The position numbers and the translations under genes are program-made. Under the pieces are notes generated by a model, which saw only the letters and a program-made list of their open reading frames with translations, was not told the origin of the DNA and searched no databases. Positions 9,379 to 60,052 of a stretch of DNA of 64,000 bases are shown piece after piece. The stretch is taken from contig JAEAOA010001935.1 in NCBI GenBank assembly GCA_016746295.1, positions 356,430 to 420,429 on the forward strand, in the 5' to 3' direction. Origin of the DNA: Potamilus streckersoni. Lineage: Eukaryota. The stretch's first letter is position 1, and each line of letters starts with the position of its first letter.

Positions 9379-9638
9379 CTATCTTCTCTGATTTTGATTT
9401 ATCATCTTCACTTTTCTCTTCACTCTCATCATCTGCATCTGTATTGTTATTATCATCACTTTCACAATCAATGGGGTCTTTATTTCCAGTGTCAGTATCC
9501 TTTGCCTTTGCATTAATGATATTACTGTTCCCATCCTCCTTTGTGTGGCTCTTGTTCTTCTGATGTTCTTCATTTAATTCTATAAATGCCAATTTTCTTC
9601 CACTATGTTCAATTTTACAATGTTTTATAAGTTTGTGC
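9379..9638 (-). CDS. Internal coding exon (minus strand) of the large zinc-finger/AT-hook gene: ...HKLIKHCKIEHSGRKLAFIELNEEHQKNKSHTKEDGNSNIINAKAKDTDTGNKDPIDCESDDNNNTDADDESEEKSEDDKSKSEKI
   Basis: Acceptor ttttttatag|G at 9639-9648 and donor ATAG|gtaagtcc at 9371-9378 (minus sense); open frame in between; begins with 1 nt that completes AG|G (Arg) with the 2-nt overhang of exon 16127-15950; ends in phase 1. Confidence 0.55.
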
Positions 9639-10547
9639 CTATAAAAAAATAAAACAAATATAAGTTCCTATATAAAATAAGCCATCAATGCAGAAATTTT
9701 TGGGGTTTTAGGAAATGAAAATAATTTAATGAAACGGCAAGATAAATTTTTTGCTGATCTTATCAAAATCCTGTGCAAACTGGTCTGCAATTCACTGCTG
9801 GTAATTTTGTGAAAGGCAAGGCTTTATGGGTACAACTGGTATAAGGTTATCCTTTCACAAGTTCATTTGCTATATCAGTGAAACAGTTCTGTAAATGAAA
9901 ATCTAATACCAGTCAAACTCTTAACACCTTCCAAAATATAATCCTCAATAAGTTGTCAAGACGGTAAGTTGTAGATTTCCACTGCACAGGCCGTCATCTT
10001 CTAAAAGTCAAATTTATTCATTAAGCTGACATCAGGCCTGATGTAATTCTTCAGTAAAATTTCTTTCACCTGCTGTGAAATTAATGAATTCCTGCCCAAA
10101 ATAAATAAGCTCTCATACTGTCAGGTTCGTAATTACCATTGGTAATTTGGTGAAGTATATTCAGCTCAACTGGTCACAGACCAGAAATGCTTTTGTTATG
10201 ATCTCAATTGTCCACTGGCAAAAATTGGTTATCACTTGTTATTAAGGTTTACTTTCATTTGGACAAATATTGAAAATTCATTTGTTCAACATGAAACTGA
10301 GAAGGAAAACTTTTTAAATTTTTCAATCACTTGCTAGATGGTGTGAATGCAGATTCAGGGCTGACAAGTGTTTCTCTGTAATGAAAAGAATCTTCTGTCA
10401 AGAATATTGCCCACAATGTTTGTGAAGTCCATACTTTCTGCCAAAAGTTTCTTTTCCATGTTTTGATGAAGCTCATACAAGCTTTCTGTTCTGACTCTTC
10501 TTTATTATTAAACACTTGCCGCAGACTTGTATTAGTTACATTATCAA

Positions 10548-10735
10548 TAAACATTTTACCAGAGACTTGTATTAATTAGCAATTACTTACAGTATCCATA
10601 AACATTTTACCAGAGACTTGTATTAATTAGCAATTACTTACAGTATCAATAAACATTTTACCAGACTTGTCTTAATTGGTAATTACTTATAGTATCAATA
10701 AACACTTTACCAGACTTGTCTTAATAGGTAATTAC
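10548..10735. repeat. ~57-bp tandem repeat (attttaccagagacttgtattaattagcaattacttacagtatc.ataaac), 3-4 copies
   Basis: Visible tandem periodicity. Confidence 0.8.
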
Positions 10736-11519
10736 TTTCAAACAGGTGTTAGAAGGGTCACAAAGTAAGTTCCAATCAAATCTGGTCATTAACATCATCA
10801 TTTTATATTTTTTTTGCGGAAAAGTTCATTCAAGGTATTTTTCCTGACTTACTGAGTGGATTTTTAAAGATTTTTTTTCAACCCTGCAATGGGTGGACTT
10901 CAATGGGTCTCATTCACTTCAATTTTTCTGTTGAGTCTTACAAAGAGGAACTTGTATTGGGGAAACCAAAGTTAAGTATGTTTCAAATCCAACTCCTTCT
11001 AAGTCCTAATAATACAAGAATAATACAAGAAACATCCTATATAAAGATATGAATGTAAAGTTGATTTACAAGGAATATTACTTTGTCCATGTCAAAGTCT
11101 CATGCACACAGGTTTTTTAAACAATGTTCACCTAAAATTGCATCAGAATATATTGCATGGTGTTTATGCCAAGTTGATTACAAGCAACACCTCTTGCAAA
11201 GATATTATGTTGATTAAAGAGGAATATGCTTTGGTCCAAATTGGTGTCAATAACACAAACCCAAAAAAGCATACTCTTAAGTTTATGAGACAATGTTCTC
11301 GCAAAATCCAATCAGAAATGGTCCTATAGCTATGCCAACATTCCAAGTTTATATGTGAAGACAACAACATGCTCAATAAGGGGCATAACTCTGTCAAAAA
11401 TGGAGTAGACAAAACTTGACATTAGCAGTTTATACAACAGTGTTCATACCAAATTACATCACCTTGGTTTGAATGGTACTTGAGCAATGCTGGTTACAAG
11501 AAACATCTTCTGTTAAGAT

Positions 11520-11800
11520 ATTAAGTTAAACAAGGCCTATAACTCAATCCAAAACAGAGCTGGTGAGATGAAACCAAAAATAAGGCATATGTAGGTTTAC
11601 TAGATAGTGTTCATACTGAACTGCATTAGAATCTGTTGAATGCATTTTTGAGCTCTGAAGATCGCTCGCTGTGAGGAAGTGATGACCTCTCTGGATAATA
11701 TAGTTAAGACAATCCAAATGTGATTGGAGCCCATCAAAATAACTGAGGCATTCCTGAGAAATGGAGATGATTCGGACCTTTCTTTCTCCATGCAGAGTAA
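11520..11800. repeat. Interspersed repeat (~280 bp) also present inside the MITE at 13855-14110
   Basis: Near-identical block caaggcctataactcaatccaaaacag...gaaatggagatgattc(g/t)gacctttct at both loci. Confidence 0.6.
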
Positions 11801-19400: not shown

Positions 19401-19401
<1 letters not shown>

Positions 19402-24631: not shown

Positions 24632-24959
24632 GTGTGTGTGATTTAGATTTGTAACGTAGCTTTAAAAATTTTTCAGTCATATCACTATGATGTCTGCCAT
24701 ATGACAGTTTATAATGATGTCTAGCACTGCAGCATAATGCTGCAGACATGTGGCATGATGTCCCACCTAGCCACCTGACACCAGGCCAATAAGTTCTAAC
24801 TTAAATCTTTTAATGCTGAGCGCCAAGTGAGGCAGCTGTTAGTACCATTTTTGAAGGTCTTTGGTACAATTAGGCCACGGTTCAAACCCGCGACATTGCA
24901 CATCAGAGGTGGACGTTCTACCTCTAGTCCACAGAAGCGGCCTATAAGTGAAACACCTG
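24632..24959 (-). mobile_element. SINE family A copy (target-site duplication about TAAGTGA)
   Basis: Collinear with the other family A copies; tRNA-like head ...ggccgcttctgtggactagaggtagaacgtccacctctgatgtgcaatgtcgcgggtttgaacc on the minus strand. Confidence 0.7.
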
Positions 24960-33984: not shown

Positions 33985-34021
<37 letters not shown>

Positions 34022-40594: not shown

Positions 40595-40786
40595 CTGTGT
40601 GGAAGAGACATAACAGTTCTGGGGTTAATTAACAGTTAATTCAGTAATCAAATGAAAAATGAAGCGCATACAAACTTTTGACTATAGAGTGCATTTAAGA
40701 TCATTTGCCAGAAAGTCTTCAATGTTTACATGTGTAAATAACTTAGTGTAGTTTGCCAACAAATTGTTTCCAAAATATGTAATTGT

Positions 40787-41092
40787 GTGTATGTGAGTGT
40801 TTTGGAGTTTTAATGCAGCTTTAAAATTTACATATTTATTGCTATGATGTCCAAAAAGTGGCAGTTAATAGTGATGTCTAGCAATGGGGCATCATACTGC
40901 TTACATGCAGCATCCACCCAGACACATTATCCTGACACCTGGCCAAACACTAACCTCTTAATGATGAGCACCAAGCGAGGCAACTAATAGTACCATTTTT
41001 AATAACTCTTTGGTATGATATGGTTAGGGTCAAAACCATTACGTCCGACATCTGAGGTGGATACCCTAACCACATAGGCCACCAGAGCAGTC
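40787..41092 (-). mobile_element. SINE family A copy inside duplication unit A (paralogous copy at 45878-46201 in unit B, so its insertion predates the duplication)
   Basis: Collinear with the other family A copies; present at the equivalent position of both duplication units. Confidence 0.7.
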
Positions 41093-43070
41093 AATTTAAC
41101 AAAATAAGGTCAAGACAACACTTAGCTATAGCAAGGACTGTGGAACCAGCACCTGATTGAATGTGGTATGTGATATGTTTTTCAAATACTAACATCTGAG
41201 CAAGGCAGCTACTAGTACCATTTTTATAAATCAATTGCATGACATGGCTGATGTTCGAAACAATGACCTACCGCATCTGAAGTGGATATTCTAACCAATT
41301 AGAATATTGATTTGATTTAAGAAGAAATGGACGGACATAACCACTTATTTGAAGTGGATCTGAGAAGAAAAAGTATGCATAAGATAAAAAAAATACTTGG
41401 GTTAACTTGGGATTAAGAAAATCTGACACAGCACGGTGTTATATTTTCATGCTTACAATGGTAACATATCAAATCTTGAGTGCCAGCTTTTGAGTAAAAT
41501 TGTTTGACACATGGATGTTTACGATCAAAATTGGATTAATTCATCCATATGTGAAAAACGGCATGGTATCTCAGTTCATAGGAGAAATTAAATGGCTCAT
41601 AATGTTATGAAACAATGATATCAGATTTTAATGGAACCCAAAAATGATTAGGAGCAGCATCTTTGAAGATTCATTATAATTCAGATGATTTGGTATAGAA
41701 TAATTTTTGCATATAATGGTGGCATTGGGGATTCAATATATCAATTTGGATTTGTGGATATTTCTTCCTACAAGGTTCTGAAAAGCTTGAGTTTCACAGA
41801 AAAATGCCTTTTTGTAAACAACTGATGAAACATCTGGCTTTCAAATTCCTGCTCCAACCATACCCAATGGCATACATTTTTAATACCTCTCTTGTTATCT
41901 TCAGAATTCTTATTTGCTCTTTCAAATATGTAGCTCACCACCAGAATGATGCTGCTTCTTATATATGATCATAATTAGGACTAATTAGGTGAAAACGGTT
42001 CTGAATGAATTCAACCTGCACTCTGGTGGCAAAATCGCAGGGCACACCAACAGAAAACAACCCCTACCATTTTTCCCCTGTAAATTTATTTAAATCTTTG
42101 TACTACACCTTTATTTTAAAAAAGTCTCATGTATGTGAAAACATGTCTTTGTTAATCACTAATTTTGGGTCTGGTTCGGTGATACAAATGTAGAAAATAT
42201 GTAAGTACCATGACTGAATAATTAACATCAGGATCATTGAAAAGCTGATGACCATAAACTGATACATGTTTATGAGGTCTCTAAATGATCAATTACGACA
42301 AGGAGAAAGCAGAAATAATAAGTCATAAGTGTCAAAACCCTCCAAAGAGAGACCAATCTGGTCTGATATGAATTTCATTAAGCAGATGAGAATAAAATCA
42401 CTTTTTAAAGCTAAAGTAAGCAAATTACATGTGTAACATTTTTGCTTTTGGAGGCTGGATTTACAAGGTAAGGATGATCTGATATATTTTGAATAAGGAA
42501 TTTTCCTAGCAAAGCACCAACAAAGTTTTCTAAGTCTAGATATAATAGGTACAAAAAATATTGCTAAAAATAAAAAAATCTCTTTTGTACAAAAATTTGT
42601 TAACAATGACATTGAAAGTGCAACAAAAGAAAATACAAAAGCTATTTGAGCTTGAAAATGAAGTCAATGCAACCTACTTTTAGTGTGGTTGAATTACACC
42701 CACTGACAGACACCAACATAACAATTTTCATGTGCAGGTGAAAATGGATCTAGGATAGTGACGGTGTAATGATTCATCTTGAATCTAAGTAAATGAACAA
42801 ATGCACAGACAAAATGTAAATCATAACTTTGTTGATGAGGGATAAAATTCTTAAGGTGGTGACAAGCTCAGCCGCCAATATAGCCGCTGAACAGAATAAT
42901 CCAACATAATGACACAAATTACTGCAACTCGAAAGCTACACTGCTTTTAATTTTTGCATTTTCGTATGCTGTTTGAATTTAAGTATAAATTTTGATTCCT
43001 GAGTCTACTGACCATTATTTTTTACTTCTGAGCCTAAAAATCTAAAAAAAATGAAAATTTGAAATCATAC

Positions 43071-43196
43071 CCCTGTTCTGGTTCTTGTTGTCTTGCCCAC
43101 TACCTGGACTACCTGCTGGTGACTTAATGCTTTTCTCTGCCACAACAGATGATTTAACATCATTATCCTTCTCAGCTTGTGCCTGTGAGGCATGTT
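43071..43196 (-). CDS. Internal coding exon (minus strand): (E)HASQAQAEKDNDVKSSVVAEKSIKSPAGSPGSGQDNKNQNR
   Basis: Acceptor tcaacag|AA and donor AGGG|gtatga; 126 nt (2+123+1) open; phase-compatible with exon 45692-45543 upstream (G|AA = Glu) and exon 40594-40442 downstream (G|AT = Asp); paralogous exon at 58128-58003. Confidence 0.55.
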
Positions 43197-43419
43197 CTGT
43201 TGACATGAAAATAAAATATAAATACTGCATTGCTTATGAAATTAGCATCTTACATCCATATCAGCTACAGTACACAGAGATAGACTAACCATTATTCATT
43301 TGTGCGAGTGTAGTTGTCATCTAATTGTTCATCACTATACAATGTAATATCCAAGCATAACAAGCATGGGTCTGCACTCCAGTGTATTATTACTTCCTGC
43401 AAGGCCTTTGAAGATGGAG

Positions 43420-43565
43420 TAAAATATACCAGGTAATTTACTTATCTGGCAATGTGAACCCCAATCAGGTAATTTACCTATCTGGCCATGTGGACCCCAA
43501 TCAGGTAATTTACCTATCCAGCCATGTGGACCCCAATCAGGTAATTTACTTATCTGGCTAAGCAG
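43420..43565. repeat. 36-bp tandem repeat (caggtaatttacctatccagccatgtggaccccaat), 4 copies; a paralogous array sits at 58400-58545
   Basis: Direct read; each unit contains a CAG|GTAATT / AG|GTAAAT splice-donor-like motif on both strands. Confidence 0.8.
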
Positions 43566-43664
43566 ACACCAATCAGAGTGAGTAATGCCTGATGGAATTA
43601 ATACCTGTTGAATGAAATAAAAGAACAGTCTGAACCATTCCAATATATGTCTCAAAATTACATT

Positions 43665-44500
43665 GTACATCACTCTTCACAAACACAAATACAGCATGGT
43701 CCATCAGCAATATGAATGTACATTGTACATCACTCTTCACAAGCACAAATGCAGCATGGTCCATCAGCAATATGAATGTACATTGTACATGATATGAATG
43801 TACATTGTACATCACTCTTCACAAGCACAAATGCAGCATGGTCCATCAGCAATATGAATGTACATTGTACATGATATGAATGTACATTGTACATCACTCT
43901 TCACAAGCACAAATGCAGCATGGTCCATCAGCAATATGAATGTACATTGTACATGATATGAATGTACACTGTACATCACTCTTCACAAGCACAAATACAG
44001 CATGGTCTATCAGCAATATGAATGTACATTGTACATGATATGAATGTACACTGTACATCACTCTTCACAAGCACAAATACAGCATGGTCCATCAGCAATA
44101 TGAATGTACATTGTACATGATATGAATGTACACTGTACATCACTCTTCACAAACACAAATGCAGCATGGTCTATCAGCAATATGAATGTACATTGTACAT
44201 GATATGAATGTACACTGTACATCACTCTTCACAAGCACAAATACAGCAAGGTCCATCAGCAATATGAATGTACATTGTACATGATATGAATGTACACTGT
44301 ACATCACTCTTCACAAGCACAAATACAGCATGGTCCATCAGCAATATGAATGTACATTGTACATGATATGAATGTACACTGTACATCACTCTTCACAAGC
44401 ACAAATACAGCATGGTCCATCAGCAATATGAATGTACATTGTACATGATATGAATGTACACTGTACACCACTCTTCACAAGCACAAATACAGCATGGTCC
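43665..44500. repeat. ~82-bp minisatellite (…atcactcttcacaagcacaaatgcagcatggtccatcagcaatatgaatgtacattgtacatgatatgaatgtacattgtac…), about 10 copies; absent from duplication unit B
   Basis: Period of about 80 bp read from recurring 'cactcttcaca'. Confidence 0.85.
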
Positions 44501-45099
44501 ATCAGTAATGTCATAAAACATGTTTGGGTCATCATCTACTTATATACATATAAATGTGCAGGCCAAATTTCATTTGCAACAGAGTTAAAAATGAAGTCCA
44601 AAGATCTGGACAAATTTTCAAAATTTATATAATGGCCTGAAAATCTAATCTGATAATCTACTACAAACTTCTAGGGATGGCACAATCCATCCAAAGAGGT
44701 GATTAATATGACAGAATTTTGTTCAAGATAGATCAAAATATGGCTGCAAAAAAAAGCATACAATGTCACTAACAATGTTTATAATGTAATATCAAAACTG
44801 GATTGCTCAAACTTTTAAGCCTCCAAAGTAACAAAAAAATCTGTCCCAAATATTGACAAAATTCAAAATCCTGTCCTCAGTACAGAAAAAAAAAAAAACT
44901 GTCAAATGTATCCCATTTCTGGTATGTCAGTCATTTTAAGCTGCCACCCATAATACTTTCTTCCAAATTAGTACGAAATTGGGGCCGAGATTTTGAGAAG
45001 TCATTTAAAAATGGACTAATAAACAGATACATCACACACAGAAGATGCAGTGCCCTATTGTAAAGATCATATGGGATCAAAAGAATGCTGATGGCAGGA

Positions 45100-45350
45100 A
45101 ACAGTTGTTATGGGGTTTAATGACATTTTTCAGTACAAGATAGTTTATAAATGGAGGCCAGCATAAATGGTGAAGAAAGAACCGGGGAAAACCCCTGAAA
45201 GAACAACCAACACACGAGAAACTACTTGCATGCTCTCTCATGTACATATATTGCTGAGCCGGAGACTCGATCCCATGCAGACAGATGTGAGATGACAGTG
45301 ACATATAACGGTGAGTACTTTAAACCACTCGGCCACTTGGGACCTTACTG
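45100..45350 (-). mobile_element. SINE family B copy inserted into duplication unit B after the duplication
   Basis: Absent at the orthologous point of unit A (40225: ggcaggaagcagaagaac continuous); flanked by ggaaacag/ggaagcag-type short direct repeats. Confidence 0.7.
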
Positions 45351-45542
45351 GAAGCAGAAGAACAAAGGTTCTGGAGAATGTAGTGTGGTACCTCACTTGC
45401 AGACCGTTCTGTGTAACATTCTAAGATTTATCATCCCCATATCTGACTTGCAAAATAATTCATAAAATAAACTAAATTTCATTTCTTAGAATGTAAAGCA
45501 TAACATGACATGAATGCCACACTAGTTTTTTCATCAACTTAC

Positions 45543-45692
45543 CTTTATCTTCCTGGCTTGGTAACAATTTCACTCTTCTGAAATTCATAGACATGGGCAT
45601 GTAGCCTGGCTCTATTTCAATCTCTGGCAAACTTTCAGGTGATGAAGGTCTTTTTCTAGGTCTTCCAACACTTCGCTTATTTCCTGTTTCAT
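45543..45692 (-). CDS. Internal coding exon (minus strand), paralogue of 40594-40442 with an AT-hook: (D)ETGNKRSVGRPRKRPSSPESLPEIEIEPGYMPMSMNFRRVKLLPSQEDK
   Basis: Same acceptor and donor as its paralogue; 150 nt (2+147+1) open; one codon shorter. Confidence 0.5.
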
Positions 45693-45877
45693 CTGTGTGG
45701 AAGAGACATCATAACAGTTCTGGGGTTAATTAACAGTTAATTCAGTAATCAAATGAAAAATGAAGCGCATACAAACTTTTGACTAAAGAGTGCATTTAAG
45801 ATCATTTGCCAGCAAGTCTTCAATGTTTACATGTGTAAATGACTTAGTGTAGTTTGCCAACAAATTGTTTCCAAAAT

Positions 45878-46201
45878 CAGTAATGTGTGTGTGCAAGATT
45901 TGGATTTTTAATACAGCTTTAAGAAATTATCCAGCTATTTTGCAATGATGACTGCAAAGTTGCAGTTAATAGTGATGTCTAGCAATACTGCATCATGCTA
46001 CATACATGCAACATCATGTTTCACACAGTCACATTATCCTGACACCAGGACAAACACTAACTTCTTAATGCTGAGCACCAAGTAAGGCAGTTACTAGTAC
46101 CATTTTTTTAAAAATCAATTGCATGACATAGCTGATGTTTGAAACCATGACCTCCCACATCTGAGGTGGATACTCTAACCACTTAGGCCACCAGAGCAGT
46201 C
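45878..46201 (-). mobile_element. SINE family A copy in duplication unit B
   Basis: Paralogous to 40787-41092. Confidence 0.7.
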
Positions 46202-46639
46202 AATTTAACAAAATAAGATCAAGACATCATTTAACTGTAGCAAGGACTGTGGGAACCAACACCTGAATGAACAGAAAATAAAGGTGGAATGCAATACGTT
46301 TTCAAGCCAATAACGAAGACACTTTTCTACAAGAGGAATCATGCACATCTGGTGCAGACAACATAGCAGACTGTATTTGGGCTGTAACACGGGAGTCAGA
46401 CAGGAATCTTGTTCTTGCAGTTCTAGAGGAAAGAATCATATGGCTTGGACAAATGATTGTATTCCAGGAAGATAGGCAATTAAATAGTTGTTGACATTGC
46501 ATCATTTATATTTAACCCCATGTTGATATGACCATCGATTTAGAACAAACAGCAATAAGAAGATTCTGAAGATGGCTGCTGGTGTCCATTAGAATGTCTC
46601 AGCATTTTCATCCAGGACAAGCTTACAGTGAATTTGTTC

Positions 46640-47040
46640 AAGGCAATTCTTAGAAGTATTTTAGGAGGAGTAGTGATAACAAGGTACAGTGAATGTATTC
46701 ATGGTAAATCTTCCAAGCATTTAAGGAGGAGAAGTGATAGCAAGGTACAGTGAATGAATGCATGGTAAATCTTCCAAGCATTTTAGGAGGAGAAGTGATA
46801 GCAAGGTACAGTGAATGAATGCATGGTAAATCTTCCAAGCATTTTAGGAGGAGAAGTGATAACAAGGTACAGTGAATGTATTCATGGTAAATCTTCCAAG
46901 CATTTAAGGAGGAGAAGTGATAGCAAGGTACAGTGAATGTATTCATGGTAAATATTCCAAGCGTTTTAGTAGGAGTAGAGATAGCAAGGTACAGTGAATG
47001 TATTCATGGTAAATCTTCCAAGCATTTTAGGAGGAGTAGT
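46640..47040. repeat. 60-bp minisatellite (aggagaagtgatagcaaggtacagtgaatg[aa/ta]t[g/t]catggtaaatcttccaagcatttt), about 6.5 copies
   Basis: Direct read. Confidence 0.85.
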
Positions 47041-50000
47041 GATAGAAAACTAATGGGCATGCGGATGTCAGGCCATTCCACAATATCTTCCTGCTTATGA
47101 CCAATGCGTGAAAATGAAAACATTTTGAGTATTTTCAAATATAAATCAGTTTATCATAAATTTCACCAATCTTCCAATCCAAAGTTTGTTTGGAAGTAAC
47201 TGATTTGTTAAAAGAGCATTCTGACGTAAATCATTCTTTGAAATAAAACAGCATTCAAATATTCCCTTTAGAATCAAGAAGTACCACCCTTAACTCAGCC
47301 AATAAAGTCGCTCTCAGTTACAATCTTTGTCCAGCGTGCTCCAAAACTAATGATGTGATACATTTGACAAATTCCGTCAGTGACTAATCTAACAACAACA
47401 TTTACATGTGGTACAAAAATTGATTTAAGAAGAAATGGACGGACATAACCACGTATTTGAAGTGGATCTGAGAAGAAAAAGTATGCATAAGATAAAAATA
47501 AGACTTGGGTGAACTTGAGATTAAGAAAATCTGACACATATGGTGTTAGATTTTCATGTTTACAATGGTAACATTAAATCTTGAGTGCCAATTTTTGAGT
47601 AAAATTGGTTGACACATGGATTTTCATTATCTAAATTGGAATAATTCATAAATATGTGAAAAACGGCATGGTATCTCAGTTCATAGGAGAAATTAAATGG
47701 CTCATAATGTTATGAAACAAGGATATCAGATTTTAATGGAACCCAAAAATGTTTAGGACCAGCATCTTTGAAGAGTCATTATAATTCAGATGATTTGGCA
47801 TAGAATACTTTTTGCATGTAATGGCAGCATTGGGGCTTCAATAAATCAATTTGAATTTGTGGATATTCATTCCCACAGGCTCCTGCAATGCATGCCTTTC
47901 ACACAAAGATACCTTTTTGTAAACAACTGATGAAACAGTTGGCCATTAAATTCCTGCCCCAAACATACCCAACAGCATACATTAGTACCTCTCTTGATAT
48001 CTTTGGAATTCTCATTTCCTCTTTCAAGTATATAGCTCACCACCATAATGATAGGACTAACTAGGTGAAAATGGTTCTCAGAGATCTCAAAAACGCTTAA
48101 TTACGTGTACTTGGACGCAAATATTTTATTGGGATTCAGAAAATCACCCACACTGGAGTCCTCCGAACGCATGTTTTTGTGGCAAGGAGGAAACTTTTGT
48201 GGCAAAATAAATATGTTCTCTAATCACTATGAAAACTGAAGCAATGCTTTTATTTTAGTTTGTTGCTGACTTTTTTTATGAAAGGTGCATGTGTTATTGA
48301 AGGCGCTGCTATAGGTTCCCTTTGAATGACAAAACAAATACCCACTTGCTATTGCTGCAGCAACATCAAATGAATTGTAGAACATTCACACAATTTTTTA
48401 AAATAATTTCCTTCAGAGGTAATCAGTTTTCATTGAAGTTGCAGAAAAACTTTTTTGGTTGTTTTTTTTCTTTATTTTTTTTTAAAATTGCTATTGTGTG
48501 GTCGACTGTAGTCATTTCACGTTTCCGCCCTCAGAGGTGGTCGATTGTAGCTAGTTAGTTGCATGGCTAGTTTGATTATATTACAGCATACATTATCAAA
48601 GATATCAGCATAAGCAGATTATAACATAACAAATAAAATTTAGGTTAGTTGGTCAATATCAAATAAGGATTTATTTATGTAACAATTGATTCCAGTTCAT
48701 TTTTATATCCATATTTGTGGCTTCCTGTCATTGTGCCTTTGAATTTCTCCACTCCAAACTCAAGACTGTATATACCATTTTTATCAGCCAAAATGTTGTA
48801 GCCAAATATATGGCCAGATGGTATATTTTGTTGTCAATACAGTCAAACCCGGTTATCTCGATTACGTCGGGGGTGTAAAAAAATCGTCGACATAACCGGG
48901 TCCCGAGATATCCGGGTTCATAAAAACAGGTAATTTTAAAAAAGTCCTTGAGCATTACTCCCGTCTCTTGCTGGTGTTTATTGGAATCCCCTCCCACTGC
49001 ATGTTACAATAAAATAAACAAAACACTTAATTGATAATAAAATGAAATGAACTAACCTGGTGTTTTTATCATTTATTCCTTTTTTATCATCATAAGTAAT
49101 TTATTAAAGAAAAAATATATGAACTCCTTATATCACATGTAGCGTATGCATCCATTACTGTAGTGTGCATCACTTATATCAGATAACACACGACGCATTT
49201 TTATAATCAATGTGAATATTGAAAAACAAATCATGTATGGTTGTACTCAGAGGTTTAAATATGTTATCAGATTGAAAAATGGATCAAAGAATATCACAAA
49301 CGAGAGAGTGAGAGAGAAACATCCACCAATTGCTTTCAGGCACCCGCCATTCACCCGTAACGCGGTGTTAGGTGCAAAATAACCAAGATTGTATTATATC
49401 CAGGTTAATATATGACAGTATCTCGCAGATAAAGATCAATAAATGTTTTTGAAAATACATGTATATGTACATTGACTGTGAGTGCAAATGGCCCTCCTTT
49501 CGCTAGTATGGGTTACAAAGAGTATTTATTAAAGCAAGTTAATGTTGAGTAGACTATTTACCCCACTGGCATCAATGCGAGTTTGTATCAATTATGATTC
49601 CTGATGGCAAATAAATAGATGCATGGGTGGGGAATAAACACATCCGTTGGCGAGCAGTAAACTAATTCTTTGAACTTACCGGCAGGATATCAAATACAAA
49701 GGTTATTTTATTGCAAAGCAAACCGACCCTGGAAACCGACTTTTGATTCTTTCAAGTGTGCCGATTCTTTTTTTTCTTTTCTGTTGGTTTTTTTTTTTTT
49801 TTGCCAACTTGGGTTTGCCTTTACTGGTATTCACAGGAATTTTGAAAATAAATTAAAACAATGGAAGCCAATTTTTCTGCCCGACTTAAATAAGTTATAT
49901 TACAAATAAGAAAACAAAACAAAATTAAGAAGACCTCAAGCATGAGAACTAAATTATGGGGCCTCGACTGCTATTGTATAGAAGCCAAGTGCCTGAGATT

Positions 50001-50125
50001 ATCCATTGGCATGCATATATATGAGCATATATATAAGGTGATATTCTGCCTAGAAATTAATCTGTTCTGTTTATTTTCTGTTGACAAGTACATGTATATG
50101 CTGTTTCATGAGAGAGAAAAAAAAA

Positions 50126-51026
50126 ATGTTCCAAAAGAGAAAGCTTTCAAACCAAAACATTGAACTGAAGTATAAAATTTTGCTACAACTTGAAAAAGGC
50201 GAAAAGTGTGTTGATTTGGCAAAAAGTACAACATTCCATCAAACACTATTACCGGCTGGAAGAAAAATGCTGATAAAATCAAAACTACTTATGAACTTGG
50301 ACAATTTGGTCCCGATAGAAAGAAAATGCGTTCCGCAAAGTTCGATGATGTCGACGAGGCAACACTAAAATGGTTTAAAAACGTCCGTGCCGAAAATATC
50401 CCAGTAGACGGCCCTCGTATCCAGCAACAGGCTGAGAAATTTGCAAAAGACTTGGGACATGAAACATGGAAAGCATCACATGGCTGGTTAGATCATTTCA
50501 AACAGCGCAATAATATATGTTTTAAAACCGTGTGTGGAGAGAGAGCATCTGTTTCAGATGTGGCTGTTAAGGAATGGCATAAAGAAGTTTTGCCAAAAAT
50601 TTTAGACAAGTTTAAGCCATGCGATATATACAATGCTGATGAAATGGGGCTAGTTTGGCAATGTCTGCCTAACAAGACGATGGATTTCAAAGGAAACAAA
50701 TGCCATGGAGGAAAAAAATCCAAAGAGAGAGTAACTTTGCTTTTGGCCGGAAATATGGATGGAAGTGACAAGATCAAGCCATTAATAATAGGAAAATCAG
50801 AAAATCCAAGATGCTTCAAAAACCTGAATAGGTCTTCTCTCCCAGTTGACTATAAAAGCCAGTCAAATAGCTGGATGACAGGTGACATCTTTACCAGCTG
50901 GTTACGCAAGTTAGATCGCCACTTAGAGTTTGAAAAACGAAAGATCGCATTGATAATAGGCAACTGACGTGCTCACCCACATGTAGAAGGGTTACAAGCA
51001 ATCACAGTGTATTTTTTTCCTCCCAA
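50126..51026 (+). pseudogene. pogo/Tigger transposase, N-terminal two-thirds (CENP-B/psq HTH: MFQKRKLSNQNIELKYKILLQLEKGEKCVDLAKS..; HTH_Tnp_Tc5 and start of the DDE domain: ...ATLKWFKNVRAENIPVDGPRIQQQAEKFAKDLGHETWKASHGWLDHFKQRNNI...ERVTLLLAGNMDGSDKIKPLIIGKSENPRCFKN...RKIALIIGN*RAHPHVEGLQAITVYFFPPN), inactivated
   Basis: Frameshift near 50225 between ORFs 50081-50368 and 50326-50967; in-frame TGA at 50965-50967 inside the conserved LLLDNxxAHP motif; coding sequence cut at 51026/51027 by the hAT insertion. Confidence 0.75.
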
Positions 51027-51382
51027 CAGGGTTCCTGCAGTCTTAACCAAAACAAATTCCATGACTTTTCCAAAACTTTTCCAGAGACATTCAACAAAAC
51101 TCAAGGACCGCGCTCTCTTGCATTATCAAGTAAAATGAATATAAAGAATGACATCTTTCAAAGAAAATAACAAATAAGTTAACAACAAATATTTTTAATA
51201 TGTACATTTTAAATTTACCTGGGTTTGCACACATTGACTTCATGCAGTAATTCATGTTATAATCCAATTTTCAATGTAATTTGTATTCAAAAGTAAAAGA
51301 GAAACAATTCTATGTAGTTTATGTATGTGTTCATATTTACAATATTAACAAAACATGTCACTTTCCAGTTGCTTTCTTGTAT

Positions 51383-53707
51383 TTAGAGAGAAGCCAACTT
51401 TTTCTGCTCTATCTCCTTTTCAATGTCCTTTAGAGACTCTTGTTTCACTTTTGCAGTCTTTCGGAGAGAATTGGACGCAGTTAACAGGCTTAGGTTATTG
51501 TCCTTTTCAGCTTGTTCAGCATTTTCATCTGCTAATTTGAGCAATTGCTGGATGTCATCTATTAATCTAATTCTTTTATTTAAGATGTCACCCAGCTCAA
51601 GATCTGCTTTTCGTTTTCTGCTCCTCTCACACTCATCCCTCTTTTTCTTTTCCTCATCCAAGTACTGTCTGTATGCATGTCTAGCATTTGAAGCATAGGT
51701 TAACATTTCTTTACTAATATTTACATTTTCAATGCCTCCTACACTCCGAATACCATCAATAATGATTCTTCTTGAAATGAGAGACAACTGCTTTTGGTTA
51801 TCTCTTATGGCTTCTTTGTTCATGGATAATCCTCGTTCAACATCTGCCTGGCCATGAGACAGAGTTAGAAGATGTTTTACAACTGGCCACAAGACAGCAT
51901 ATTCCTTTTTGTTTGCCATCAAAGAATGAAAAAATGAATCTAAGCGGTCTTTCTGTCTGGAGAACTGAGCAAATTTCACAGAGTCTTCCAATTTCAAACA
52001 ATTTTCCAAAAAGGATTTGTAGTTTTTAGCCAGGGCATCACATTGGTTTGGATCTATTCTTCCATTGTTGACTAGAATTTTGACCAGTGAGTGGAATGAC
52101 TGAATGCTTGTCTTTATATCCTTCATCATCATCTCTGGGTTTAAGCATGTCATATGTCTTACAAGTGCAAAAGTCACTGGTGATTTTGTCAGCAGTTTTG
52201 TGACAGCAGCTTGGAGGAATTTCCTGCAATCAATACGGAATGACAAAATGTCCCTATCTGTCAATTTCCCTGATTTTTTTAAGTCTGCAATCACAGTCAT
52301 TGTCACAAAGCCAATTTCAATCATTGCAGGGTCTTTAAGATGTTTGCAATTTGTTAGATCCAATTTTATGAGCTTTGATGCCTCTGTGATAAGGTCCAGA
52401 TGATCTTGAGCTACAAATCGCTCCATAAGACCCCTGATCATTTTGAAAATGTCTTCGGCAAGGAAAGGCAGCAATGGAGTGTCTCCTTGAAATTCCTGTA
52501 AAAATGGCTCAAACTCTCTAGCCACTGAAAGGAAAAACTGTGCTTGAGGAATGAAGAGATGAGACTTAATCACTTCCTTTAGACTCTCAAATGATTTTAA
52601 TTTTGGGTGCTTTTTAAGCGACTCAATATATGTTGCTAGGTATGGAAGGAGGGATATGACTTTCTCTACAACTGTGATATTCTCAAGCCACCTGTGCTTA
52701 CAGAATTTTGGTGGCAGCTCCTTGTTACCAGATACTTTTTGATAGTCCTCTATTCTGGCTGGAGAATCTTTAAAGAAGTAATAGAGATTGCTTTGTGTCT
52801 CCTCCAGATTCCACTCTGTGGCAGTGCAACCATGCCTGAAAGCATTATGAATTAAATGCAGGCTGCAAGATTCTGTTGGCAACAACGACTTTCCAGGATT
52901 TAAACGATTAATCTCTGCATTCAACATGTCAAAGGTTTTCCAGTTAACATTAGGTCCATCCATTGAAATTTGGAGGAGGTTCCTGGTGCCAAGATCTTGG
53001 ATGATTGGACACAACTTGCCAAAAAGATCATCTGCAGTGGCATGTCCCAAAAACTCAGATGTTAAAAATCTTGTCTGCACTCTTTCTGCACCCTGTTCCC
53101 AAAATCTGACATGAATGTCACATTGCTTTTGGCGCAATTGTTTATTCAAACTTTCATCGAACTGCAAGACATATCCATCACACTTGCGTATGCTATCTTT
53201 TAAGGTTGATGTAAAGTATGGGGATAGGCCATGAATAGCAATATAACTTGTTTTGTCATAACCGCAAGTGAATTTGTTTGCAATTGCACTGTCTGGAAAC
53301 ATTAGTGAAAAAACTTGTGAAATTTCCTCATTGGAATTAAAGGAGCTGTGTGTATTCACTGTCCTTGATGTCCACAAAATTTCTGCCTTTAATACATCAT
53401 TTGATGATGTATATGACGTTAATGTTGGGGCAGGCTTTGGCGTACCTTTAGGTAATGGTGAGGCTAAAGGTGAAATAAAACCAAAGAGTGTGTTGTTCTG
53501 AGCAGATTTCATTATTTTACAATTCTGCACATGCTTCTTGCTGGTGGAATGACTTTTGAGGGCAGCTTCTCCCATATTTGCAATATCTATAATTTTGCTA
53601 CAAGCTCTGCATTTAGCAGTCCTTGGGTCTGAAGCATTCTTCTCCGCCCATTTTTCATAGCTTGGGTTAGTCAGCCATCTGTTATTGAATGTGCACATGC
53701 CAGGCAT
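51383..53707 (-). CDS. hAT-family transposase, 774 aa, intronless and intact: N-terminal CxxC...H...H zinc finger (KCRACSKIIDIANMGEAALKSHSTSKKH), DUF4371-type core (..LQFDESLNKQLRQKQCDIHVRFWEQGAERVQTRFLTSEFLGHATADDLFGKLCPIIQDLGTRNLLQISMDGPNVNWK..), C-terminal hAT dimerisation motif (..LWPVVKHLLTLSHGQADVERGLSMNKEAI..) and a coiled-coil tail
   Basis: Single 2,325-nt ORF on the minus strand with no stops; motif pattern FDES…/…VERxxS characteristic of hAT (Ac/Buster/Charlie-like) transposases; lies centrally within an element with TIRs. Confidence 0.8.
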   Translation of the reverse strand: MPGMCTFNNRWLTNPSYEKWAEKNASDPRTAKCRACSKIIDIANMGEAALKSHSTSKKHVQNCKIMKSAQNNTLFGFISPLASPLPKGTPKPAPTLTSYTSSNDVLKAEILWTSRTVNTHSSFNSNEEISQVFSLMFPDSAIANKFTCGYDKTSYIAIHGLSPYFTSTLKDSIRKCDGYVLQFDESLNKQLRQKQCDIHVRFWEQGAERVQTRFLTSEFLGHATADDLFGKLCPIIQDLGTRNLLQISMDGPNVNWKTFDMLNAEINRLNPGKSLLPTESCSLHLIHNAFRHGCTATEWNLEETQSNLYYFFKDSPARIEDYQKVSGNKELPPKFCKHRWLENITVVEKVISLLPYLATYIESLKKHPKLKSFESLKEVIKSHLFIPQAQFFLSVAREFEPFLQEFQGDTPLLPFLAEDIFKMIRGLMERFVAQDHLDLITEASKLIKLDLTNCKHLKDPAMIEIGFVTMTVIADLKKSGKLTDRDILSFRIDCRKFLQAAVTKLLTKSPVTFALVRHMTCLNPEMMMKDIKTSIQSFHSLVKILVNNGRIDPNQCDALAKNYKSFLENCLKLEDSVKFAQFSRQKDRLDSFFHSLMANKKEYAVLWPVVKHLLTLSHGQADVERGLSMNKEAIRDNQKQLSLISRRIIIDGIRSVGGIENVNISKEMLTYASNARHAYRQYLDEEKKKRDECERSRKRKADLELGDILNKRIRLIDDIQQLLKLADENAEQAEKDNNLSLLTASNSLRKTAKVKQESLKDIEKEIEQKKLASL

Positions 53708-54514
53708 GTTGGACTAAACCTAAAGCAATAAAAAATGAAAGATTTTCAGATTTAGCTGTCATTATGGGATATTGTGTATTTTATTATGTATTCAGAGTTT
53801 TCTAACGGTCCAATGTTCATTAAGTAATTATTTTTATAATCTTTTGGCCAGACTTAGAATCTAAGATTTAGTTAATATAATATTATGTAGTCTTGGTTAT
53901 TTGAAATTAAAATACAATTTTCAGACAATGACAATTCTTTTCTTTAACTTTAACAAAAATTCATTAAGTATCCTAGTAACAGCAACACTGAAAATGCCAT
54001 CAAAGTTTACCAGATACAGAAAAATGTTTGATTAAAGTTAAACTATAATGGTAGTAAATATGTTTTATCCTAACATGGCAACCCTCTTGAAAAATGGAAG
54101 TCAAATTTCCCACACTGTAATATTACTGGAATTTTGACTGAAGTCTTCTTGCAATTTTTTTTTTATTTTGAATTCAAATATTTTTCTTTCTTCAATACAC
54201 GATCTATTCTAGTATTTATTTACTATAAATATTTATTTTTATTGGGGTTTTGGAAAATCGGGTGAATTTAATTGGGAGACAAAGACAGGTCTAATATTAA
54301 AACAGTTCTCTTAAATTTTATTCAGTATGGTTGGCTGGTCAACTAAAAACAGCTTCCGATTGAAAACTATAGTTTTTTAATATTCTGAAATGAATGTAAA
54401 GTAACTGCCCAAAATAAGAATATGAAATTTACAATAACAATTATAATCAGGTCGTACCGTACCATCTGCCATAATAAAAGAATGAATATGCCATATGAGA
54501 TGTTACGACAGACC

Positions 54515-54960
54515 CGAAAAAAAAGAGAAATATAAACGAAACCAAAATTAGTGTTTACCATGTGCATTAGATCGAGAAAATAAGTGACTTTCTCGGAAGA
54601 AATTAACTTTGTTTTGATATATCGTGAAGTGTTAATTGCTCAAAATGGTGCAGCAAACAACATTAATTTCCCTATGGAACTACAAAGTAAATCACGTGAG
54701 ATATACTGTTAGGGAACTTACTCTTGTTATACAAAATTAAGAGATAAATATAAATGAAACCAAATTAGTACTTACCTTGTACCTTAGATTGAAGAAATAA
54801 CAGACATTTTGGGAAGAAATTGGCTTCCTCTTGATAGACCTTCAAGCGGTTTTTGCTCAAAGCGGCGCGGCTGTTCATTTGAATTTTCCAATCGAACTAC
54901 ACCGGAAATCACGTGATACTACTGTTAGGGTCACTTACTCTTGTTATATTTAATGAAACC
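54515..54960. repeat. Subterminal ~220-bp tandem repeat (2 diverged copies) in the 5' non-coding region of the hAT element (upstream of the transposase ORF)
   Basis: 54515-54735 vs 54736-54960 share gaga(a/t)aaatataaa(c/t)gaaaccaaa(a)ttagt..ttacc.tg..cttagat.ga(g/a)aaataa...ttt.ggaagaaatt..ct...ttgata.a.c.t.aag.g......gctcaaa..g..g..c..tt.a..ttcc.at.gaactaca..g.aaatcacgtga.a.tactgttaggg.acttactcttgttata; shorter 25-bp direct repeats aaattccatgacttttccaaaactt at 51052-51076 and 55043-55067. Confidence 0.7.
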
Positions 54961-55169
54961 ATTTATCGATCGTAATTTTATCGTGTTTTATTTAATCGGT
55001 ACTCGTTGAAATTTGGAGTAATCAATTTTTTAACTCCATTGTCAGAAATTCCATGACTTTTCCAAAACTTAGCAAGGTTTTGACAAATTCCATAAATTTT
55101 CAAGGCCCTTGAAATTTATTTTCTAATTTCCAAAACTTTTCCAGGATTCCATGACCCGCGGGAACCCTG

Positions 55170-55777
55170 TCCCAATGCTACCAGTAAACTTCAGCCACGC
55201 GACCAAGGAATAATTCAGGCTTTTAAAATCCAATATCGGAAAGCTTTAGTTTGCAATTATTTGCTTGCAGTTGAGGAAAAGCGATCATATAAACCAACTC
55301 TGCTAGACGCCATCATGTATGCCCGTGCAGCTTGGAACAGTGTATCGCCGAAAACCATTAAAAACTGCTGGTTCCATTGTATTCTTCCGGAAATTTCTGA
55401 TGAAGAATTTCACCAGCAGTGTTTAATTGCACAAGAAATTAAAGAGCCTCAAACAGAAATAGGTCTTGAAGCGATGGCTGATGAGATTGCGGACTCCATA
55501 GGCATTTCATTTTCACGTGGATGATAATGCCAATGCCTATGGTGAACTTACTGATGAGGAAATAATTCAATCGGTGACAATGAAGCAGATACGATCATGC
55601 AAGCAAGATGATGATGATGATTAGCCTATCACTATCCCAAGCTACAGTGAAATGGCTGAATGCATTCAAAAAATGAAATTGTTTGTGGCGAGTGTCGACG
55701 GTGCCGAGCATATGTATGAAAACGTAAGTGCTTTTGAATCGTTCGTTACAAATCAGCACCGGAGTAAACAAATGTAG
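55170..55777 (+). pseudogene. pogo/Tigger transposase, C-terminal third (..ATSKLQPRDQGIIQAFKIQYRKALVCNYLLAVEEKRSYKPTLLDAIMYARAAWNSVSPKTIKNCWFHCILPEI..., then after a frameshift ..DDNANAYGELTDEEIIQSV...PITIPSYSEMAECIQKMKLFVASVDGAEHMYENVSAFESFV)
   Basis: Continues the pogo frame interrupted at 51026; conserved LQPLDQGII / DAI..A..AW..V...I.NCF motifs; at least one further frameshift near 55500-55525; stop TAG at 55774-55776. Confidence 0.7.
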
Positions 55778-57199
55778 ACTGATATTACTTCATATTTTCT
55801 ACAAAAATAATGCAGTGCACATTATGATATGTTTATGTACTTGTGTGTTTTATAGATGTATAGATTCAAAATGAAAAAAGTATTCATTTTTTATTCATAT
55901 ATAGTATGCGTTTATTGTACATGTACGTGTAGGTAATTTTACCATATATTTTTGTATTTCCACTACATTATGTTCAGTTTATAATTCCTAGATATTTTGA
56001 AAATATTGCTGACATGTTTGGCTATTTTGTCATAAAATGCAATACAATAAATCGTCATGATATTAGGTGCAAATGGAACAATTTCATCACCTGAATGAAT
56101 ATTCAGCCGACCAGCACTTTTCCGTCTGCACATTGATTATTAATGTGTACATGTACATAATATTTCATTACTTGTATCTCCTTGATTGTAGTTTCTTGTA
56201 TATGTACTTCGGAACATAATTCATATCTTAAATGTACCTTAAGAAATAAAAGGGAAATGATAAAATACACATGTAGCTAACATCTAAGATTCTGTGTTTT
56301 CGTAAAATAAAGTTACATTGTAATTTGTGCACACTCTTGTCTTTGTGAATTTCTGAATATTTTATGTAGTGAACATGATATATTCTTAATAAACTAATCA
56401 ATTAAGCTACTTTTACAAATCAAAAATAGAAAGAATATGAAATAAACATGTGACTACTGCCAAAACAGACCAAAATTGTTCCTGAAAATCTATCGCTTTT
56501 GCTGACTATTTATTGTACAATTTCTGTGAGATTGACGTTAAAAAGTTGCATTTCGTCGAATTAAGCGGGTCCACATGTTACTTCGGACCGAAACTTATGC
56601 CCGACATAACCGGGTTATCGACTTAACAGAGGTCGAGATAAACGGGTAAAAAATAGCATAACAGAAAAGAATTTTTTCGGGACCGGACTCAAACGCTCGA
56701 CATAAGCGGGTTGTCGAGATAACCGAGGTCAAGATAAGTGGGTTTGGCTGTATGTAAAACATAATTGCAATTTGCGACATTGGCAAAGCCCAGCGCAATC
56801 ACTGTTATTGATTTCATTTCCGGTTATTGCCGTATAAATATTGCCTGCGAACTCAAAATCAAGAGACTTGGACAATATGTTATTTGCAAATTTAGACAAG
56901 TGTTTTGTAGTTAAACGTTAAAATGTTGAATATTTCAATGAGATTCAGAACTGTGCTAAAGTTGCTATAACTGATAGTTCGGATGCGACCGTAGCCAAGT
57001 GTAAGAAAGTACGTGATTTCTGGCTATGTGGGGACTGCAACTTTTGCTGGTGGGACTCTAATTTTTACCAAATTAGGAGTCCATTTTCCTAGTTTTAAAA
57101 TCCTAGTGAGACCTCTGGTTCTGAATATATTTCAACCTGTACTCTGTTGGCAAAATCACAGGGCACACCAATGGAAAAAATTAACCCATACCATTTTTT

Positions 57200-57203
57200 C
57201 CCA

Positions 57204-57250
<47 letters not shown>
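57200..57250. repeat. (TA)n microsatellite
   Basis: Direct read. Confidence 0.95.
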
Positions 57251-58002
57251 CAGAAATTCATTACAAAAAGAAGTCTCATGCCTATGAAATAATGTCTTTG
57301 CTAATCACTGATTTTGGGTCATACAAATGTAGAAAATATGGAAGTACCATGACTGAATAATTAACATCAGGATCATTGAAAAGCTGATGACCATAAACTG
57401 ATACATGTTTACGAGGTCTCTAAATGATCAATTATGATATAATAGGTACAAAAAATATTGCTAAAAATAAAAAAGTCACTTTTGTACAAATATTAGTTAA
57501 CAATGAACTAATGTGGTAAAGTAACTAAGATATGTATCTACACGTCAAAATCCAAGACAAGAAGGTGCAACAAAACAAAATACAAAAGCTATTTGAGCTT
57601 GAAAATGAAGTCAATGCAACCTACTTTTAGTGTGGTTGAATTACACCCACTGACAGACACCAGCATAACAATTTTCATGTGTAGGTGAAACTGTATCTAG
57701 GATAGTGATGGTGCAATGATTCATCTTGTAACTAAGTAAATGCATAAATGCAATATCCAATCATGACTTTGTTGATGAGGGATACAATTCTTAAGGTGGT
57801 GACAAGCTTAGCCACCAATATAGCTAATTAGTATAGCCAGTGTAGATCACAGATTATTTAGACTTGAAAGTTAAACTGCTTTTAGTTTTTGCATTTTCGT
57901 ATGCTGTTTGATTTTTTTTAAAAAATTTGATTCCTGAGTCTACTAACCATTATGTTTACTTCTGAGCCTAAAAATCTAAAAAATAAAAATTTGAAATCAT
58001 AC

Positions 58003-58128
58003 CCTTGTTCTGGTTCTTGTTGTCTTGCCCACTACCTGGACTACCTGCTGGTGACTTAATGCTTTTCTCTGCCATAACAAATGATTTAACATCATTATCC
58101 TTCTCAGCATGTGCCTGCGAGGCATTTT
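58003..58128 (-). CDS. Internal coding exon (minus strand), paralogue of 43196-43071: (E)NASQAHAEKDNDVKSFVMAEKSIKSPAGSPGSGQDNKNQNK
   Basis: Same acceptor tcaacag|AA and donor AAGGG|gtatga; 126 nt open; phase-compatible with exon 60052-59881 upstream (G|AA) and exon 45692-45543 downstream (G|AT). Confidence 0.5.
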
Positions 58129-59880
58129 CTGTTGACATGAAAATGAAATATAAATACTACATTGCTTATGAAATTAGCATCTTACATTCACATCAGCTTA
58201 AGTACACAGAGATAGACTAACCATTATTCATTTGTGAGAGTGTAGTTGTCATCTAATTGCTCATCACTATACAATGTAATATCCAAGCATAACAAGCATG
58301 GGTCTGCACTCCAGTGTGGTGTGTCTTTTTATATGTGATAGATTTATGATAGGCTGTATTATTACTTCCTGTAAGGCCTTTGAAGGTGGAGTAAAATATA
58401 CCAGGTAATTTACTTATTTGGCTATGCAGACCCCAGTCAGGTAATTTACCTATCCAGCCATGTGGACCCCAATCAGGTAATTTACCTATCCAGCCATGTG
58501 GACCCCAATCAGGTAATTTACCTATCCAGCTAAGTGGAACCCAATCAGAGAGAGTAATGTCTGATGGAATTAATACCTGCTGATTGAAGGAAACATACTA
58601 ATATACCAGTCTACTATTCCTTCTACATATAATGTTTCAAGCAAATAGGGTGGAACTTGATCTACTATCACATAATTAGTATGTTAAACATAAATACATT
58701 AACCAGAAATTCTCCTTCTGGACATTAATGTCTTTACCAACAGTTCTTTGTCACACACGGCATACAGCCAGAAAAATTTGGACTAGATTTGTTTGAAAAG
58801 CTCATATGCCCCATTACCCTACCTCAAAAGTCCCCAAAACAATGTTTTTATTGTATTTAAGATAATGTTGTAAAACATGTTTGGGTCATCATTTACTTAT
58901 ATATATAAATGTGCAGGCCAAGTTTCAATTGCAACAGAGTTAAAAATGAAGTCCAAAGATCTGGACAAATTTTCAAAATTTATATAATGGCCTGAAAATC
59001 TAATCTGATAATCTACAACAAACTTCTAGGGATGGCACAAAACATCCAACAAGGTGATTATTTTTACAGAATAATGTTTAAGATGGATCAAAACATGGCT
59101 GCAAAAAAAAAAAACATACTATGTCACTAACAATATTTATAATGGAAAATTAAAACTGGATTGCTGAAACTTTTAAGCATCAAAAGAGACAAAAAACTAT
59201 GTCCCAAATATTGACAAATTTGTCAAAATCCTGTCCTCAGTACACAAAAAAAACCTCAGAATCCTGTCCTCAGTACAAAAAAAGCTGTCAAATCAAGCCC
59301 TTATTACTGACAAAACTGTCAGACTCCATAGTCTGAACACATGATAAAGATTGCTAAAGATCATCAATGGCACAAAAATCTACACCTATACAAAAACATA
59401 CATATTATACCCATTTTGCCTAATTCATGCAGTTTCTACTTAAATCTTGATAGGCAATGTTTCTAGATATTTTAATGGCTTGTATACAAAATCTGGCTAT
59501 CTATATACAGTGAGAAATGTGCCTACTGAATTTTACCTGTCAGAGTTAGGCAATTTTTACATAATCATGCCAACAAGGTTCATAATGAAAGGTGCTAACA
59601 AGCTTCCCAATACAGATGTAGAGATGAAGAGGGACAAATTAAGATGCTCTCAATAGAGAAAACACAACAGAAACATCAAGAATAGATTAAATAATTGTTA
59701 ATACTTGCTTTCCCCTGCTACTTCTTGGTATATACTTTTCTTTAAACCTAGTACCTCTAAAAATATTTCCCTTATTTAAAACTTGAGTACAAAAATGCCA
59801 AAACATTTGCAACTGCAATGGTTTAGCATTGTAAACCTGCATCTTTCATCCCACCCACCCATTCAACCTCAGGTCAATAC

Positions 59881-60052
59881 CTATCAATTTAGTTTTCAGC
59901 TGCAAGTTTTCATTCTTCAGTTTCTCTATTTCATTTTTCAGATGTCGCTTTTTGAGCTCCTTGGCATATTTGTCCCTCTCTTTCTGAAGTTCTTCCAGTT
60001 CCCTCTGCAGCTGCTGGATTTCGTCATCTTCATCAAGACAAATGACCTCCAT
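59881..60052 (-). CDS. First coding exon (minus strand) with the start codon: MEVICLDEDDEIQQLQRELEELQKERDKYAKELKKRHLKNEIEKLKNENLQLKTKLI(E); predicted coiled coil
   Basis: ATG at 60050-60052 in good Kozak context (acacaATGG) with an in-frame TAA 9 nt upstream; donor ATAG|gtattg at 59875-59880; heptad-like Leu/Glu/Lys pattern; phase (ends with 1 nt) matches the next exon; a possible 5'-UTR acceptor ctatttcag lies just upstream. Confidence 0.5.

Follow-up and report, generated by a model that had tools for sequence, protein, structure and literature searches.

An annotated gene with duplicated exons, predicted to encode a zinc-finger and AT-hook protein, in the unionid mussel Potamilus streckersoni

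AT-hooks and C2H2 zinc fingers occur together in ZFAT, PATZ1 and ZBTB24, and these proteins, along with HMGA for the AT-hook itself, serve here as the comparison systems; paired fingers of a particular spacing are known from the vertebrate proteins ZNF462, ZNF451, ZNF142 and ZHX1-3. The locus compared with them lies in a 64,000-nucleotide stretch of the Potamilus streckersoni genome (assembly GCA_016746295.1, contig JAEAOA010001935.1, positions 356,430 to 420,429; hereafter the window), which is 34% G+C, eukaryote-like and rich in repeats. The best explanation of the data, and one that we hold with high confidence, is that the window contains ten exons of a real zinc-finger/AT-hook gene, annotated as CHS0354_032784. 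The predicted protein begins with an acidic N-terminus and a helix of about 60 residues, followed by two cassettes that each consist of a Ser-rich linker and an AT-hook, a single finger, a Ser/Glu/Lys/Arg repeat, three finger pairs, a third AT-hook, and a set of acidic repeats.

The gene model and its conservation

The gene is on the minus strand, and window coordinates are accordingly given from high to low. Nine exons were rebuilt between 60052 and 9379, with a tenth at 729-558, and they are listed here with / marking splice junctions.

Exon 1, 60052-59881, minus strand: residues 1-57, with the N-terminal VICLDEDDE followed by a long coiled-coil-like helix; ends in phase 1; donor GTATTG; 100% match to residues 1-57 of the deposited protein.
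Exon 2 (SerB), 58128-58003, minus strand: Ser/Gly/Asn-rich linker of the upstream cassette copy, 95% identical to SerA; phase 1-1; donor GTATGA.
Exon 3 (ATB), 45692-45543, minus strand: AT-hook DETGNKRSVGRPRKRPSSPE...RVKLLP of the upstream cassette copy; phase 1-1; donor GTAAGT.
Exon 4 (SerA), 43196-43071, minus strand: duplicate of exon 2; phase 1-1; donor GTATGA.
Exon 5 (ATA), 40594-40442, minus strand: duplicate of exon 3, and nearer to the single Sinanodonta AT-hook exon; phase 1-1; donor GTAAGT.
Exon 6 (Zn1), 36120-35862, minus strand: one C2H2 finger, YLCNLCDFTCEYFLAVYNHLRKEH; phase 1 in, 2 out; donor GTGAAT; splice context matches that in Sinanodonta.
Exon 7, 23560-23166, minus strand: Ser/Glu/Lys/Arg-rich degenerate repeats of about 17-34 residues (…S.AVRQTSEE.Q…); phase 2 in, 1 out; donor GTAAGG.
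Exon 8 (Zn2), 16127-15950, minus strand: all of finger 2 and the N-terminal half of finger 3 (FRCKYCAYKVYE/R); phase 1 in, 2 out; donor GTAAAA.
Exon 9, 9638-9379, minus strand: remaining half of finger 3 (HKLIKHCKIEH), with an acidic stretch rich in Asp, Glu and Asn after it; phase 2 in, 1 out; donor GTAAGT.
Exon 10, 729-558, minus strand: finger 4 and the first half of finger 5; 100% match to residues 607-664 of the deposited protein.

An in-frame TAA precedes the ATG at 60052 by two codons. The nine introns of the window all have the GT..AG ends, pyrimidine tracts and compatible phases of U2-type GT-AG genes; they are 2-13 kb long and crowded with transposable elements and satellites. The acceptors are YAG behind a pyrimidine-rich tract (9-14 pyrimidines per 17 positions scored), the donors are GTR throughout, and the phase overhangs across the ten exons run 1, 1, 1, 1, 1, 2, 1, 2, 1, 2. 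For exon 7, an acceptor at the start of the open frame (23586) was rejected as it breaks the frame, and the acceptor is TTGGTACAG/A at 23560.

The ten exons together encode 663 amino acids, and this spliced product is 100% identical, over its full length, to residues 1-663 of a 1155-residue GenBank entry, 'hypothetical protein CHS0354_032784' of Potamilus streckersoni; the gene thus runs past the left edge of the window, with another 492 residues encoded beyond it. The Potamilus annotation was made with Funannotate/EVidenceModeler from RNA-seq-trained predictors, assembled transcripts and protein hints (PMC7937423).

The orthologue in Sinanodonta woodiana (ACJMK2_012597) has 1101 residues, is 65-70% identical, and maps exactly onto its locus (L001) in 16 exons. 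The first eight of these have the same phases as the window exons and nearly identical junction contexts (e.g. tttttcttggtacag/AAGCAG, AACAAG/gtgaat and TGAGAG/gtaaaac), and exon 1 is 172 nt long in both species. The two loci are collinear, and those introns that can be aligned are 68-78% identical. The reading frame shows purifying selection, with a dS of 0.35, a dN of 0.15 and an omega of 0.42 across 556 aligned codons that contain neither a stop nor a frameshift. Where exons differ in length between the species, they always do so by a multiple of 3, whereas the 200-nt flanks have some 150 indels of any length. UniRef labels both proteins 'C2H2-type domain-containing protein', and neither has a described function. 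A further block (63152-63996), located 3-4 kb ahead of the start codon, is 72% identical over 890 nt to the Sinanodonta locus and has no obvious open reading frame (ORF); it could be a conserved upstream or 5′-UTR (untranslated) region, or a shared repeat.

An earlier note, made from the letters of the window without database searches, had proposed the nine-exon minus-strand model with its overhangs, a span of at least 50 kb, introns full of transposable elements, and a continuation past the left edge. The rebuilt model agrees with it on each of these: the exons run from 60052, where the peptide quoted in the note begins at the ATG, to 9379 with a tenth beyond them, the introns contain a Tigger/pogo element, a hAT-like element and a LINE fragment, and the deposited protein continues after exon 10. 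Two checks that the note had proposed, a homologue search with the spliced product and a comparison of the exon set with a related genome, yielded the identity with CHS0354_032784 and the shared intron positions and phases of the first eight Sinanodonta exons. Its polypyrimidine/AG acceptors were as described, but its GTAAGT-like donors are exactly GTAAGT at only three of nine sites, and the nine exons encode 606 residues rather than the 560 that it gave. Exon 10 and the tandem duplication of the Ser and AT-hook exons were absent from its account.

The note had also taken the exact meshing of splice phases to be very unlikely by chance, and this argument does not stand. A null test was made with the loosest features of the real exons, namely a YAG acceptor with at least 10 of 17 upstream pyrimidines, a GTR donor, and at least 126 open nucleotides. 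With these, the plus strand of the window gives a phase-compatible chain of 30 pseudo-exons, and ten Markov-simulated sequences give chains of 17-28. Phase continuity is therefore not evidence when exon boundaries are freely chosen, and the model is right for independent reasons, these being identity with the deposited protein and conservation in a second species. Raw sequence by itself can thus be enough for a careful reader to arrive at a correct animal gene model of ten exons and 60 kb, while the meshing argument itself carries almost no statistical weight.

Exon duplication and intron repeats

Comparison of the window with itself by BLAST shows that 40245-44893 is 77-90% identical to 45350-48052 together with 57117-59253, and near-identical GRPRKRP peptides are encoded at about 45666 and 40568 on the minus strand. 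The features of this duplication are as follows.

Copy A, 40245-44893, no strand assigned: exons 4 and 5 with flanking intron, from the self-BLAST.
Copy B, 45350-59253 (45350-48052 and 57117-59253), no strand assigned: exons 2 and 3, broken by a 9-kb insertion.
Nested transposable-element insertion, 48079-57116, no strand assigned: 9 kb, in copy B only.

Because each copy holds one Ser and one AT-hook exon, the order in the gene is Ser, AT-hook, Ser, AT-hook, and not Ser stretches followed by two AT-hook exons as the earlier note had it. Copies A and B both align to a single Sinanodonta unit (L001 14451-18109). Where Potamilus has two Ser and two AT-hook exons, Sinanodonta has one N-terminal AT-hook exon and one Ser exon, the latter internally expanded (201 nt, compared to 126 nt in Potamilus). 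Since both the Sinanodonta locus and its protein have just one unit, the duplication of about 5 kb and two exons postdates the split and took place on the Potamilus side. Identity between the duplicated exons is 95%, with a single 3-nt indel and the same splice sites, whereas the sequence flanking them is 87-93% identical and has many indels.

Both species also share an earlier duplication, which took in the AT-hook exon together with about 190 and 460 nt of adjoining intron (L001 17192-18005 and 78010-78871, 68% identical); it accounts for the third, C-terminal AT-hook near residue 815 of both proteins. The AT-hook exon has been amplified at least twice, once as the older shared copy and again in the recent two-exon duplication in Potamilus. 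The idea that a mobile element carries the exon was not adopted, as all copies seen in the window and in the Sinanodonta locus lie within this one gene.

The insertion in copy B provides a relative date. Its ends are CAGAGATCTC... and ...GAGACCTC(TG), and it lies between ATGGTTCT and CTGGTTCT, for which copy A has just one ACGGTTCT; these flanks suggest an 8-bp target-site duplication made after the cassette had duplicated. The tandem duplication of the two-exon cassette is a clean example of exon duplication, whose age can be placed relative to both the split from the Sinanodonta lineage and the later transposable-element insertion. Within the insertion, two halves of a Tigger/pogo transposase are on the plus strand, at 50215-50964 (HTH_Tnp_Tc5 and the N-terminal part of DDE_1) and 55096-55521 (the C-terminal part of DDE_1). 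The halves are about 4.1 kb apart with a hAT-like ORF between them, so that one element is nested in the other. This ORF is intact (776 residues, 53713-51386, minus strand), lies in intron 2 on the strand of the host gene, and has no Pfam match. It has 563 homologues in echinoderms, fish, ticks, molluscs and others, of which one is a second copy with 91% identity and one is named 'HAT C-terminal dimerisation domain-containing'; it looks like a member of a hAT-like transposase family that is poorly covered by Pfam. The terminal inverted repeats around the nested insertion are weak candidates only (26-30 nt, 70-81%), and the element boundaries are therefore approximate.

Several other repeats occupy the introns. 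A 41-bp tandem repeat at 8690-9312, located 67 nt downstream of the exon 9 donor, has 15.2 copies that are all 100% identical, which suggests either very recent expansion or an effect of assembly. A 35-bp satellite is present in the intron between exons 9 and 10 (1455-2625 and 4443-6037, with 45 copies in the larger array), and the orthologous Sinanodonta intron has a related array (L001 55200-58009 and 59750-59838), so the satellite has been retained at this site in each of the two species. An 82-bp tandem repeat (43710-44509; 9.8 copies, 98% identity) lies in the intron between the duplicated cassettes, and the intron between exons 6 and 7 contains a LINE fragment with RVT_1 (31900-33700, minus strand), copies of which are also present in the Sinanodonta locus. 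A dispersed SINE-like repeat of about 300 nt is found at 1874-2141, 24633-24940, 34005-34323, 40784-41092 and 45884-46201, with one copy about 190 nt upstream of each AT-hook exon, and has more than 10 further copies in the Sinanodonta locus; ARAGORN finds no tRNA in it and Rfam gives no match to it. Scans of the whole window for tRNAs and Rfam families were empty.

Protein architecture and relatives

The N-terminus is (M)EVICLDEDDE (residues 1-10, 60052-60023), and Val3 to Glu11 are invariant between the two species. The full protein was modelled with AlphaFold using a two-sequence alignment, with a mean pLDDT (per-residue confidence) of 31.8; the sole confident region is a helix at residues 8-71, with pLDDT of 75-82. 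Weak matches of the protein to coiled-coil Pfam families accompany this predicted N-terminal helix. The AT-hook KRSVGRPRKRPSS, with a GRP core and basic flanks, occurs three times in the Potamilus protein, two of these being in the window, and twice in the Sinanodonta protein. Seven fingers of the form [FY]xCx2Cx12Hx4H are found in the Potamilus protein at positions conserved in its orthologue, and they carry the C2H2 ligand pattern C-x2-4-C-x12-H-x3-5-H with a preceding aromatic residue. The window encodes fingers 1-4 and half of finger 5. Finger 3 (FRCKYCAYKVYE/RHKLIKHCKIEH) is reconstituted only by joining exons 8 and 9; the exon that the earlier note described as a second C2H2 finger does contain one, but encodes 1.5 fingers, the third being split by the intron. 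Nor is exon 7, which the note called RS/E-rich, the RS domain of an SR protein, as it has just three RS/SR dipeptides in 132 residues. Seven or more acidic DVTPDxVD repeats follow the third AT-hook.

A search of 1.84 billion representative proteins gives an E-value below 1e-30 for the Sinanodonta orthologue alone. The next matches have E-values of about 1e-21 and weaker, are mainly in the finger region at 25-28% identity, and include a C2H2 protein of the slug Arion vulgaris. These distant matches lack the AT-hook module and the N-terminal motif; at E-values of up to 5e-4, one has an AT-hook-like motif and none has the N-terminal motif. In the libraries searched, the architecture thus looks restricted to two unionid mussels. 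The best match to a solved structure is to the ZHX1 finger pair 2ghf (E = 0.006).

Alternative readings and comparison with known systems

Several observations weigh against the reading of this locus as one gene whose ten window exons together contribute to a DNA-binding zinc-finger and AT-hook protein. The presence of all four duplicated exons in one mRNA rests on automated annotation, and the differences between these exons, which affect 12 codons, comprise 10 nonsynonymous and 2 synonymous changes, so that one of the copies may be under weaker constraint. Every Pfam family stays below its curated cut-off, the best being ZNF462-, ZNF451-, ZNF142- and ZHX-type finger models (16-26 bits, compared to cut-offs of 25-30), and zf-C2H2 (PF00096) scores 14-17 bits, under its cut-off of 25.2. 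The three AT-hook peptides match no Pfam family at E-values of up to 10, although the AT_hook model is very short and HMMER filters may drop such matches. Outside the N-terminal helix, and so across all the fingers, the AlphaFold pLDDT is below 50, which leaves their beta-beta-alpha fold putative. Finger pairs with H-x4-H spacing, moreover, often mediate protein contacts and not DNA binding.

Two alternatives concern the gene itself. One holds that open frames and splice-like signals have fallen together by chance to form the exon chain, or that the chain is a dead pseudogene; it draws on the ease with which chains of 17-30 phase-compatible pseudo-exons can be built from the opposite strand and simulated sequence by the criteria of the earlier note. 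It is nevertheless ruled out for practical purposes, having a negligible probability given the identity of the product with a deposited protein, an orthologue with matching intron positions, an omega of 0.42 without stop or frameshift in 556 codons at a dS of 0.35, exon length differences between species that are always multiples of 3, and a zinc finger rebuilt across a splice junction. A less remote alternative, although one that we still think rather doubtful, is that the gene is real but its cassettes are not all included in one mRNA, with the exons being mutually exclusive or skipped, or with copy B decaying to pseudo-exons, such that the product has one N-terminal AT-hook as in Sinanodonta. 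Mutually exclusive splicing is known to arise from tandemly duplicated exons, and because all four cassette exons are phase 1-1, skipping or alternative use of any of them would keep the frame. The mostly nonsynonymous differences between the copies point the same way, as do the greater divergence of ATB than of ATA from the Sinanodonta exon (omega of 0.84 and 0.56, respectively, from small counts) and the 12.3-kb length of the intron containing the 9-kb insertion. The deposited, evidence-based model, however, has all four exons, both copies keep an open frame and the same acceptor and donor sequences, and the exons have stayed more alike than their indel-rich flanks. It is improbable, in our estimation, that AT-hook number is adaptively tuned, for instance to keep pace with AT-rich satellites or transposable elements that evolve rapidly; if it were, it would resemble the satellite-binding multi-AT-hook proteins of other animals.

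As to function, the motifs point to a product that is probably a nuclear DNA- or chromatin-binding factor, in keeping with the chromatin or DNA-binding factor that the earlier note had read from the layout. Its AT-hooks would bind AT-rich DNA through the minor groove, its finger pairs would make further contacts with DNA or with proteins, and the N-terminal helix may mediate self-association. The protein might instead be mainly a SUMO-dependent or other protein-protein scaffold, with VICLDEDDE as a SUMO-interaction motif and the H-x4-H pairs making protein contacts, as in ZNF451-like proteins. VICLDEDDE, with its hydrophobic core and acidic run, presumably fits the SUMO-interaction motif pattern, and its invariance in both species, the weak Pfam likeness to the finger pairs of ZNF451, ZNF462 and ZHX, and the top structure match to ZHX1 are all in keeping with a scaffold. 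These similarities are all under curated cut-offs, however, and three conserved GRP-core basic motifs point to nucleic-acid contact, so that a primarily scaffolding role seems unlikely; the two roles are in any case not mutually exclusive. The biology is modest and leaves current understanding unchanged. The gene model is already in the public record as an uncharacterised protein, and as the gene is already deposited the novelty of the model is nil and that of its biology low.

Compared with known systems, the mussel protein shares the paired C-x2-C-x12-H-x4-H spacing of the vertebrate proteins ZNF462, ZNF451, ZNF142 and ZHX1-3, but it reaches the cut-off of none of these models, has no homeodomain, and has nothing in common with them outside the fingers. 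Orthology to the proteins that combine AT-hooks with C2H2 fingers was not detected, with ZFAT giving only a weak single-finger match (2rsh, E = 0.26). The mussel protein has no BTB/POZ domain, and the residue before its AT-hook core is Val in place of the Arg of canonical RGRP. Like ZFAT, PATZ1 and ZBTB24, however, it has a GRP-core basic motif (KRSVGRPRKRP) and C2H2 fingers in one chain, with the AT-hook present in multiple copies.

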